A stretch of 4,475 nt of DNA, from IMG/VR virus record IMGVR_UViG_2654587685_000013. One strand, written 5' to 3'. Below, one piece after another: positions 3,001 to 4,475 of this stretch (position 1 is its first letter; the number at the start of each line of letters is the position of its first letter). This stretch comes from a virus. Its lineage: Duplodnaviria > Heunggongvirae > Uroviricota > Caudoviricetes. Position numbers: made by a program.

Positions 3001-4475
3001 GCTGATAGTGTTTTTCATGTAACCAATGTTACTACCAAGTGATGTTGCTATGGTTGACATTGTAATGTAACTATTGTTACCCTCCTGCTCGAAATAACAG
3101 GAGAGTTTTATGTTCAAAGATGATGTTCTGCGCTATTTCAAAAAAAAGCGACTAGTAGCTGAGGCTCTTGGAATTTCACATGTGGCTGTTGTGCGGTGGA
3201 AAGCAGTTATTCCCAAACTTCGCGCAATGGAACTGGATGAAATTACTAACGGTGAATTGAAATACAACCCAGAACTTTACAAGAAGCAGGATAGCACCTC
3301 GAACGAAGGAAAGAATGATTCATGAAAATCAAGCATGAACACATCCGCATGGCGATGAATGCCTGGGCGCATCCGGACGGCGAGAAAGTACCGGCTGCAG
3401 AGATTACCAAAGCGTATTTCGAGCTGGGAATGACGTTCCCGGAACTGTATGACGATAGCCATCCGGAAGCCCTGGCTCGCAATACCCAGAAAATTTTCCG
3501 CTGGGTAGAGAAAGACACCCCTGATGCAGTTGAAAAGATTCAGGCGTTGTTACCAGCGATCGAAAAGGCAATGCCACCTTTGCTGGTGGCCAGAATGCGC
3601 AGCCACAGTTCAGCTTATTTTCGGGAGCTGGTGGAGATGCGGGAACGACTGGTGAGAGACGCTGATGATTTTGTCGCAGTGGCGATCGCTGGTTTCAATC
3701 AGATGAATCGTGGTGGCCCGGCAGGAAATGCCTTGGTGATGCACTAAAAGCACGGTGTTCGGAGTTTTTTATGAGCAGCAAGCTTCATGGTCTTGTCTGG
3801 GAAGGGTGTGCCTTCACCGGCATGATCTTATCCAGGGTGGCAGTTATGGCTCGCCTTGCAGATTACAGCAATGACGAAGGTGTGTCATGGCCTGCAGTGG
3901 AGACCATTCGTCGTCAGATTGGGGCAAAGAGTGAATCAACGGTTAAAGCTGCGATAGCAGAACTGGAAAAGAACGGCTGGCTGACGAAGGAGGAACGTAA
4001 GGTCGGTGGGCGTAATGAAAGCAATATCTACCGTCTTAATGTGGAAAAACTCGAAGCAGCAGCAGCGGCGGCGCGTGAGGCATATAAACCGAAAAGAAAA
4101 ATTAGCCAGGCAAAAAATGACCCGTCAAATATTACCCCCTCAACGGTTAACCCATCAAATTTTGATGGATCAACCGTTGATAAAAAACAGTCGGATAGGG
4201 GGGCGATGGTTGGCCCCGATCCGTCAGTATTAAAACCTGATCCGTCAGATAAAAGATCTTTTCGTCCGGAAGCTTCGCAACCGGACATGCAGACGGCTGA
4301 ACAGGATTTTTTAACCCGACACCCTGACGCGGTTGTGTTCAGTGCGAAAAAACGCCAGTGGGGTAGCCAGGAAGATTTAGCGTGTGCGCAGTGGATCTGG
4401 GGGCGAATCGTGAGTCTTTACGAGCAGGCCGCCAGCGATGATGGCGAGATTTCGCGACCGAAAGAACCCAACTGG

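Follow-up and report, generated by a model that had tools for sequence, protein, structure and literature searches.

An iteron-like repeat array in the linker-coding part of an O-like initiator gene as the probable replication origin of a lambdoid Escherichia coli prophage

The 4,475-nt stretch of viral DNA recorded as IMGVR_UViG_2654587685_000013 (hereafter, the window) is the immunity and replication region (left arm) of a lambdoid Escherichia coli prophage resembling Rac and Qin; it shares 99.9% identity with a prophage in the chromosome of E. coli O6:H16 strain 2014EL-1346-6. It carries an O-like initiator gene (3771..4475, + strand) that runs past the window end. We propose, with a probability of roughly three in four and on the basis of sequence comparisons, that positions 4119-4283 within this gene are the replication origin of the prophage, and that lambda-style iterons lie there in the part of the gene encoding the disordered linker between the two domains of the initiator. 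The linker segment is very probably a cis-acting DNA element maintained by selection. Its repeats are more than a chance occurrence, because they are conserved family-wide at synonymous sites; judged by these sites, they are conserved as DNA rather than as protein.

The 15-bp array

Four 15-bp units arranged head to tail form an array of candidate iterons at 4119..4178 (+ strand): unit 1 (4119-4133, GACCCGTCAAATATT), unit 2 (4134-4148, ACCCCCTCAACGGTT), unit 3 (4149-4163, AACCCATCAAATTTT) and unit 4 (4164-4178, GATGGATCAACCGTT). A fifth, degenerate unit occupies 4179-4193. Their conserved core reads TTGA-(C/G)4-TCAA or, equivalently, TCAA-N3-TTGA. An initial annotation of this DNA had described two tandem units of about 30 bp at 4121-4180; the repeats are real, but their basic period is 15 bp, and the 30 bp is a super-period created by the alternation of two unit subtypes, ..AAT-wTT and ..ACs-GTT. 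The encoded peptide repeat (DPSNI/TPSTV/NPSNF/DGSTV) and an Ala6 run (residues 96-101), both pointed out in the same annotation, are present in the translation. A switch in GC skew, which it had proposed to look for, appears as a local change of sign near 4121-4210, but this reflects the C-runs and G-runs of the units and is uninformative on replication direction at this scale.

As each unit has internal dyad symmetry, units 2 to 4 together form a near-perfect 41-nt palindrome (4140..4180) with 20-nt arms that are 90% complementary; as single-stranded DNA it is predicted to fold into a hairpin at -13.7 kcal/mol (z = -5.75). Tandem Repeats Finder reported nothing in the array region, because the copies are too divergent; the program find_repeats listed the array as this inverted repeat. 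Exact matches to the sequence GAYCCRTCA occur four times in the window, and every one of them lies inside 4119-4247. Over the whole of the initiator gene covered by the window, the only difference from the closest genome record (L001, the O6:H16 prophage) is an A at 4134 for a G at L001 6364, which exchanges Thr for Ala; this is the first base of unit 2 and belongs to the less conserved positions of the unit.

Conservation of the linker DNA across the family

Relatives of the initiator gene were gathered as 80 close ones from viral contigs, 78 loci from a one-genome-per-species set of bacterial genomes, and four further loci, and yielded about 110 distinct homologues from many Enterobacterales genera. 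Searching a phage collection by megablast with the initiator gene matched only its C-terminal part, and the N-terminal part and the repeats had to be followed by protein-level and genome-collection searches. Among complete E. coli genomes the gene was matched in 2748 of 5426, and 1446 of the matches cover most of the query. The array was found throughout the family, always directly 3' of the winged helix that makes up the N-terminal domain. The number of units ranges from 3 to 10 and changes in whole 15-bp steps, and the lengths of the proteins accordingly step by five residues; the homologue in prophage CP-933P/Sp12 of E. coli O157:H7 has exactly one extra 15-bp unit.

Two subfamilies of N-terminal domain are present, and their units differ (representative units are TTGACCCCTCAA for the first and TCAAAATCTGAC for the second). 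In the window's subfamily, whose proteins start MSSKLHGLVWEG, the units follow GAC-CCn-yCA-Ann-nTT, with the core TTGA-CCCC-TCAA and a free 3-nt spacer. In the second, whose proteins start MSTKLTGYVWDG and which includes the initiators of SfII, SfIV and phiP27, they follow GAC-nnn-TCA-AAA-TCT. Where the peptides of the window's subfamily alternate between Pro and Gly, the DNA has CCCC or GGGG in the middle of the dyad TTGA-SSSS-TCAA, which is one and the same site read in either orientation.

Codon usage within the units is strongly biased in both subfamilies. In the window's subfamily, the serine at the third position of the unit is encoded by TCA in 190 of 191 units, compared with 11% of the serine codons elsewhere in the same genes. 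For the second subfamily, 253 units from 51 distinct genes were counted: the third-codon serine is TCA in 228 and TCG in 25, with no other codon used (TCA accounts for 18% elsewhere); lysine is AAA in 164/164 units against 64% elsewhere; and for the serine of the fifth codon, TCT was counted in 141 of 182 units (9% elsewhere). The same units are free at their second codon, where 21 different codons encode Pro, Ala, Thr, Gly, Val, Leu, Glu and Arg.

To quantify this conservation, the information content of fourfold-degenerate third positions was calculated at conserved residues in a set of 12 genes that represent the window's subfamily in Escherichia, Citrobacter, Salmonella, Serratia, Erwinia, Mixta, Edwardsiella and Morganella. 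The median was 0.58 bits in the N-terminal domain (40 sites), 0.22 in the C-terminal domain (26 sites) and 2.00 in the linker (16 sites); the linker differed from the N-terminal and C-terminal domains with Mann-Whitney p = 6e-7 and 1e-6, respectively. The 49 genes of the second subfamily behaved alike, with 0.02-1.0 bits in the N-terminal domain and 1.06-2.0 bits in the linker. The initial annotation had held that conservation of the repeat DNA independently of codon position would support an origin, and these values display such conservation. Among 46 distinct close E. coli variants, synonymous heterozygosity was 0.153 in the N-terminal domain and 0.123 in the C-terminal domain, compared to 0.044 in the array, 0.000 in the spacer and 0.009 in the GATC block described below. 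The fraction of codons with amino-acid variants in the same set was, conversely, 0.27-0.67 in the linker and 0.07-0.19 in the domains.

One possible explanation for the repeats is that a low-complexity, disordered peptide linker was expanded by replication slippage, leaving DNA similarity without a DNA function. The predicted disorder of the linker, the changes of copy number in whole units and the fact that units within one gene are not independent samples are all in line with it. Nevertheless, synonymous sites are invariant across eight or more genera in which the flanking domains are saturated; the fourfold-degenerate nucleotide 6 of the unit drifts (0.5 bits) while nucleotide 9 stays (1.5-2.0 bits); amino acids vary more than synonymous sites do; and the non-repetitive block at 4202-4283 is equally conserved. 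Slippage thus appears largely refuted by the synonymous-site data, and we regard it as very unlikely.

Within this block (4202..4283), none of the fourfold-degenerate sites that could be tested varies across the 8 genera (13 sites, each 2.00 bits). The region of interest had earlier been ended at 4260; the conserved DNA in fact reaches to about 4283. The zone contains two GATC boxes as well as the junction with the lambda-O-like part of the gene, and its conservation as a block is seen in 100 distinct genes. Both boxes had been annotated as GATCCGTCAG units 21 bp apart and are present as such: the iteron-like box 1, with its GATC, at 4218..4227 (+ strand), and box 2 at 4239..4248 (+ strand), 21 bp downstream of box 1. 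In the 100 genes, GATCCGTCA of box 1 is identical in 94, from both subfamilies, and the aspartate codon of box 1 is GAT in all 100, which makes the GATC of this box universal. Box 2 reads GATCC(G/A)TCA in 82 of them and the second GATC is kept in 88, while the spacing between the boxes is 21, 18 or 24 bp depending on the clade.

Synonymous constraint might also originate from the opposite strand, as an antisense protein, RNA or promoter. An 86-codon antisense open reading frame (ORF; 4028-4288, - strand) spans exactly the linker region, and stop-free antisense stretches across the linker are common in the relatives. The frame that is open, however, differs between and within subfamilies, and most of these stretches lack an ATG and several are interrupted; on account of these inconsistent frames and missing start codons the ORF was rejected as the source of constraint. 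The dyad symmetry of the units accounts for the similar, DPS/DG-rich peptide that the ORF encodes. Moreover, no sigma-70-like promoter was found on either strand of 3700-4475, there is no Rfam match in the region, and conservation follows a 15-bp period with a free 3-nt spacer rather than a codon period. An antisense origin of the constraint is in our view extremely improbable.

Initiator domains and the origin reading

The type of repeat follows the N-domain subfamily without exception (57/57 and 50/50), and both subfamilies occur with either of two unrelated C-domain types. A prophage initiator of E. ruysiae combines a third, unrelated N-terminal domain with a C-terminal domain of the window's type; at the position equivalent to the window's array (L092 2697-2870) it has five 23-bp repeats (GGTCAAAATG...), followed by two copies of TACAGAGAATAmAA that lie 24 bp apart. 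Judged from these sequences, such covariation is the pattern expected if the N-terminal domain recognises the repeats and the C-terminal domain has a separate, exchangeable function. The downstream loader gene varies as well (PMC2669165): the window's prophage and O157 Sp12 have one of the DnaC/IstB-like type, Salmonella and Serratia have a lambda-P-like one (PF06992), and in one Citrobacter locus no loader is present and a PerC-like gene directly follows the initiator. The regions after the initiator lie at 2499-3230 in loci L164-L166, at 2493-2960 in L163 and at 6955-7701 in L001, and the extreme C-terminus of the initiator changes along with the gene that follows.

An AlphaFold2 model of the initiator was built from a 56-sequence alignment. 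The N-terminal winged-helix DNA-binding domain (residues 1-105; 3771..4085, + strand), presumed to recognise the origin, was modelled with a predicted local distance difference test score (pLDDT) of ~80 and the topology H-H-H-H, beta-hairpin, H. Its only Pfam match was HTH_36 (PF13730, E = 4e-8); Foldseek returned the winged helices of PadR, MarR and ArsR with weak E-values (4e-3 or higher), and searching PDB sequences with the family profile yielded nothing meaningful. Residues 108-166 are predicted to be disordered (pLDDT <50). The repeats and the GATC boxes encode exactly this disordered stretch, positions 4119-4248 corresponding to residues 117-160; as the linker peptide is predicted to be disordered, its sequence would be free to be dictated by the DNA. 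The helical C-terminal domain (residues 173-290, pLDDT ~88), the start of which is encoded at 4284..4475 (+ strand), is homologous to the C-terminal domains of lambda O and phi80 gp15 and is presumed to interact with the helicase loader. It shares 35% identity with gp15 across 130 residues (E = 2e-26), whereas BLASTP of the N-terminal domain against gp15 gave no similarity; in the same vein, Phage_rep_O (PF04492) is matched by lambda O (E = 6e-36) and by gp15 (E = 6e-25) but not by the window's initiator.

Near-identical matches to the O genes of other phages begin at query position 481, which is window position 4251, and from there on the DNA matches lambdoid O genes such as those of mEp460, at ~88%, and HannyBb. 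This mosaic junction also forms the right border of the element (4251..4275, + strand, AAAAGATCTTTTCGTCCGGAAGCTT). The iterons 1-4 of lambda are annotated at 39034-39118, and the four annotated gp15 binding sites of phi80 at 36663-36739 of JX871397; both sets lie between the same two domains as the window's array, and the sequence that closes the AT-rich regions of these two phages lines up with window 4250-4275 in a three-way DNA alignment (AAAAGATTATTCGTCAGAGAATTC in lambda, AAAAGATCTTCGTCCGAGAATTC in phi80, AAAAGATCTTTTCGTCCGGAAGCTT in the window). The repeats therefore occupy a position homologous to that of two experimentally defined origins. The initial annotation had likened the repeats to lambda iterons in an interdomain linker, and the homology of the C-terminal domains, the equal position and the alignment of the right border all speak for that likeness.

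The same junction raises the question whether the likeness is kept by recombination that swaps N- and C-terminal modules among lambdoid phages, the conserved DNA being a patch of homology at a module boundary and not a site of protein binding. The mosaic junction at ~4251, the exchange of C-terminal domains immediately downstream of it and the different loader genes of the relatives are consistent with this. It leaves unexplained, however, the tandem dyad-symmetric units, their strict covariation with the N-terminal domain and the position that they have in common with the mapped iterons of lambda and phi80, and it does not account for conservation across both subfamilies and distant genera when DNA a few bases away is randomised. 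As the whole explanation it seems to us distinctly unlikely, although it is compatible with an origin, and a role in module exchange may be a side effect of a conserved origin.

Alternatively, the sites might bind the initiator or another protein for purposes of control (autoregulation, copy-number handcuffing or exclusion of related phages), with the origin elsewhere, for example downstream of the replication genes. Plasmid iteron arrays are known to double as control elements, and the weakness of the AT-rich element discussed below would fit such a role. So would an 11-mer of the unit 2 core (TCAACGGTTAA, 4140-4150), which recurs identically at 3936-3946, in the region that encodes the N-terminal domain. 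This second copy is not kept in the O157:H7 homologue, which has GAATCCACAGTGAAA instead, and is probably due to chance, although it may conceivably be an autoregulatory site. The homology of position with oriLambda and the phi80 origin also argues against a purely regulatory function, as does the finding that no comparable repeat cluster exists elsewhere in the window. We consider it quite improbable that the sites serve control alone.

If the segment is the origin, the following sequence of events may be envisaged. Rightward transcription from the immunity region would supply the initiator, the N-terminal winged-helix domain of which, probably as dimers, would bind the four 15-bp units as well as the two GATCCGTCAG boxes, proposed initiator sites that have in common the core GAYCCRTCA and a short dyad symmetry. 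The resulting nucleoprotein complex would then destabilise the adjacent stretch of low stability at ~4228-4262, and the lambda-O-like C-terminal domain would recruit the DnaC-like loader encoded by the next gene, which in turn would deliver the host DnaB. The segment 4228..4262 (TATTAAAACCTGATCCGTCAGATAAAAGATCTTTT), which includes the third GATC (4255), is the least stable duplex of the gene and a candidate unwinding element; its GC content is 0.375, and it lies at the point at which the AT-rich regions stop in lambda and phi80. Dam methylation or SeqA may provide a further layer of control through the conserved GATC sites, but these could also be conserved simply because they belong to a larger conserved block.

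Several observations weigh against the origin reading. The AT-rich element is weak: the gene's 30-mer of lowest stability, at 4228-4257, departs from the window mean by only ~1.7 standard deviations, and less stable stretches than 4228-4262 exist elsewhere in the window. The annotated cluster of three GATC sites within about 40 bp is present (4218, 4239 and 4255, with another site at 4168), but its density is weak evidence, since taken alone it is marginal: at least three sites within 41 bp were found in 140 of 2000 dinucleotide shuffles and at least four within 91 bp in 66 of 2000, and the whole window, with 14 GATC observed for 15 expected, is not enriched. The N-terminal domain is of the HTH_36 and not the Phage_rep_O type, which makes the likeness to DNA binding by lambda O an analogy there and not a homology, and the window's repeats follow each other head to tail every 15 bp, compared with an iteron spacing of ~20-24 bp in lambda and phi80 (lambda iterons are 18-19 bp). 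Genes within a clade, like units within a gene, are not independent samples, and concerted evolution or frequent recombination could inflate the apparent conservation. Finally, literature searches found no paper on the origin of this initiator family, only general work on lambda and Shiga toxin (Stx) phages.

An additional scenario is that the array and the invariant block differ in function. Instead of being bound by individual dimers in the lambda style, the fast-evolving array of 15-bp units, packed head to tail with 1.4 helical turns each, would carry a continuous, filament-like coat of initiator. The almost invariant block (GGGGATCCGTCAGTAA...GATCCRTCAGATAAAAGATCT), which is common to both N-domain subfamilies and found with every type of C-domain and loader, would serve all of them as a site for licensing or helicase entry, recognised by a host factor or controlled through Dam methylation and SeqA. 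We offer this division of labour as a speculation that is unlikely to be correct; if it were true, firing of the prophage origin would be coupled to host replication and methylation state.

Other sequence elements near the array were examined as well. The A-rich tract annotated at 4085-4118 (+ strand) does exist, with a GC content of 0.30 and an AT skew of +0.64, and it encodes the basic peptide KPKRKISQAKN (YKPKRKISQAKN). Its DNA is not conserved in other genera, however, and the second subfamily is without it; the tract is probably just a by-product of lysine codons and lies outside the conserved DNA element. A scan of 3700-4475 for terminators gave a single match, a terminator-like hairpin with a T-run within the A-rich tract (4107-4124, - strand), at the level expected by chance. 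A DnaA box that matches TTWTNCACA exactly (TTTTCCACA, 4040-4048, - strand) lies ~75 bp upstream of the array. It was taken to be a chance match: the window contains fewer DnaA-box matches than expected by chance, and relatives vary in the valine codon that the box includes.

Prophage context and comparison with known systems

The initiator comprises 315 residues in the 99.9% identical E. coli O6:H16 record and matches PHROG 391, 'replication initiation O-like', across its full length (E = 1.5e-112). Upstream of it in the window lie a - strand gene for a CI-like repressor of the LexA family (2344-3117), a gene resembling cro of P22 (3110-3325) and, between the latter and the initiator gene, a member of the YdaT family (3322-3747). 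In the full record the gene after the initiator encodes a DnaC/IstB-like AAA+ loader (L001 6955-7701). The order Cro-like gene, YdaT (CII analogue) gene, initiator gene and DnaC-like loader gene is that of a replication module (PMC8630535; PMC2669165), and for this reason the gene context was counted in favour of the origin reading. The YdaT-family homologue of the related O157:H7 prophage CP-933P was shown to be an analogue of CII, acting as a CII-like activator and not a toxin (PMC8630535), and the database label 'toxin YdaT family' for 3322-3747 is therefore misleading. At the other end of the window, a full-length match to the antisense small RNA DicF (Rfam RF00039) was found at 849-900 on the - strand (70.8 bits, for a gathering score of 48; E = 1e-14). 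It adjoins a sub-threshold STnc100-like match at 659-851 and agrees with the Qin-like dicB/ydfC context of the full record.

The initiator family is also found in CP-933P/Sp12 of O157:H7, in the Shigella serotype-converting phages SfII and SfIV, and in many other Enterobacterales. The likely origin offers a concrete target for minimal-replicon and incompatibility work, and its specificity predicts which prophages may activate each other's replication in one cell, a matter of relevance to how virulence genes spread between defective prophages. The DNA-level constraint explains the five-residue length steps and the apparent protein-level selection in a gene annotated as 'helix-turn-helix protein', and it presents a clean case of DNA-level selection overriding protein-level selection in a coding region, which matters for scans of nonsynonymous to synonymous substitution rates (dN/dS) and for synonymous recoding.

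Plasmid iteron origins (P1 oriR, F, R6K, pSC101) have tandem repeats of 19-22 bp and a winged-helix initiator, and their origins lie outside the initiator gene; P1 oriR and oriC each contain a Dam-dependent GATC cluster. The window resembles them in its tandem initiator-binding repeats, as proposed here, and in the GATC near a presumed unwinding region.

Among phages, the initiator gene of CP-933P/Sp12 has 88.8% DNA identity to that of the window and the same DnaC-type loader (PMC8630535; PMC2669165), and the O-like initiators of SfII, SfIV and phiP27 belong to the same protein family, in the second N-domain subfamily. In the papers searched, the genes of CP-933P/Sp12, SfII, SfIV and phiP27 are named 'o homologue' or 'O with a DnaC-type loader', and no origin, iterons or binding sites are described. 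The HTH_36-type initiator family is widespread, and its compact 15-bp iterons and near-universal GATC block appear to be undescribed.

The phi80 origin in gene 15 has its iterons at the equivalent position, and the sequence that follows them (ATTAAAAGATCTTCGTCCGAG) nearly equals window 4248-4270; the CII analogue upstream of the window's initiator (YdaT family) is likewise of the phi80 type (PMC8630535). It differs in the N-terminal domain of gp15, which is Phage_rep_O, and in its iterons (TTCCCGAAAACGGGAA, spaced 20-21 bp), which are unrelated in sequence to the window's units.

oriLambda, in gene O, consists of four 19-bp dyad-symmetric iterons and an AT-rich region (PMC7466680; PMC6022878). 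There, as proposed for the window, the initiator gene itself harbours the origin, between the parts for an N-terminal domain that binds the origin and a C-terminal domain that binds the loader, and translation of the dyad-symmetric repeats yields a linker that is dispensable; in addition, the two systems have homologous C-terminal domains and right borders that can be aligned. The window differs in the two separate GATC-containing boxes that it adds after the repeats and in its much weaker AT-rich tract, and the loader is P in lambda but DnaC/IstB-like in the window's prophage. In Stx phages, extra iterons lengthen the protein (PMC7466680), much as extra units do in the window's family. For an origin to lie within the gene of its initiator, and for the iterons to covary with the N-terminal domain, is textbook lambdoid biology; only the member described here is new.

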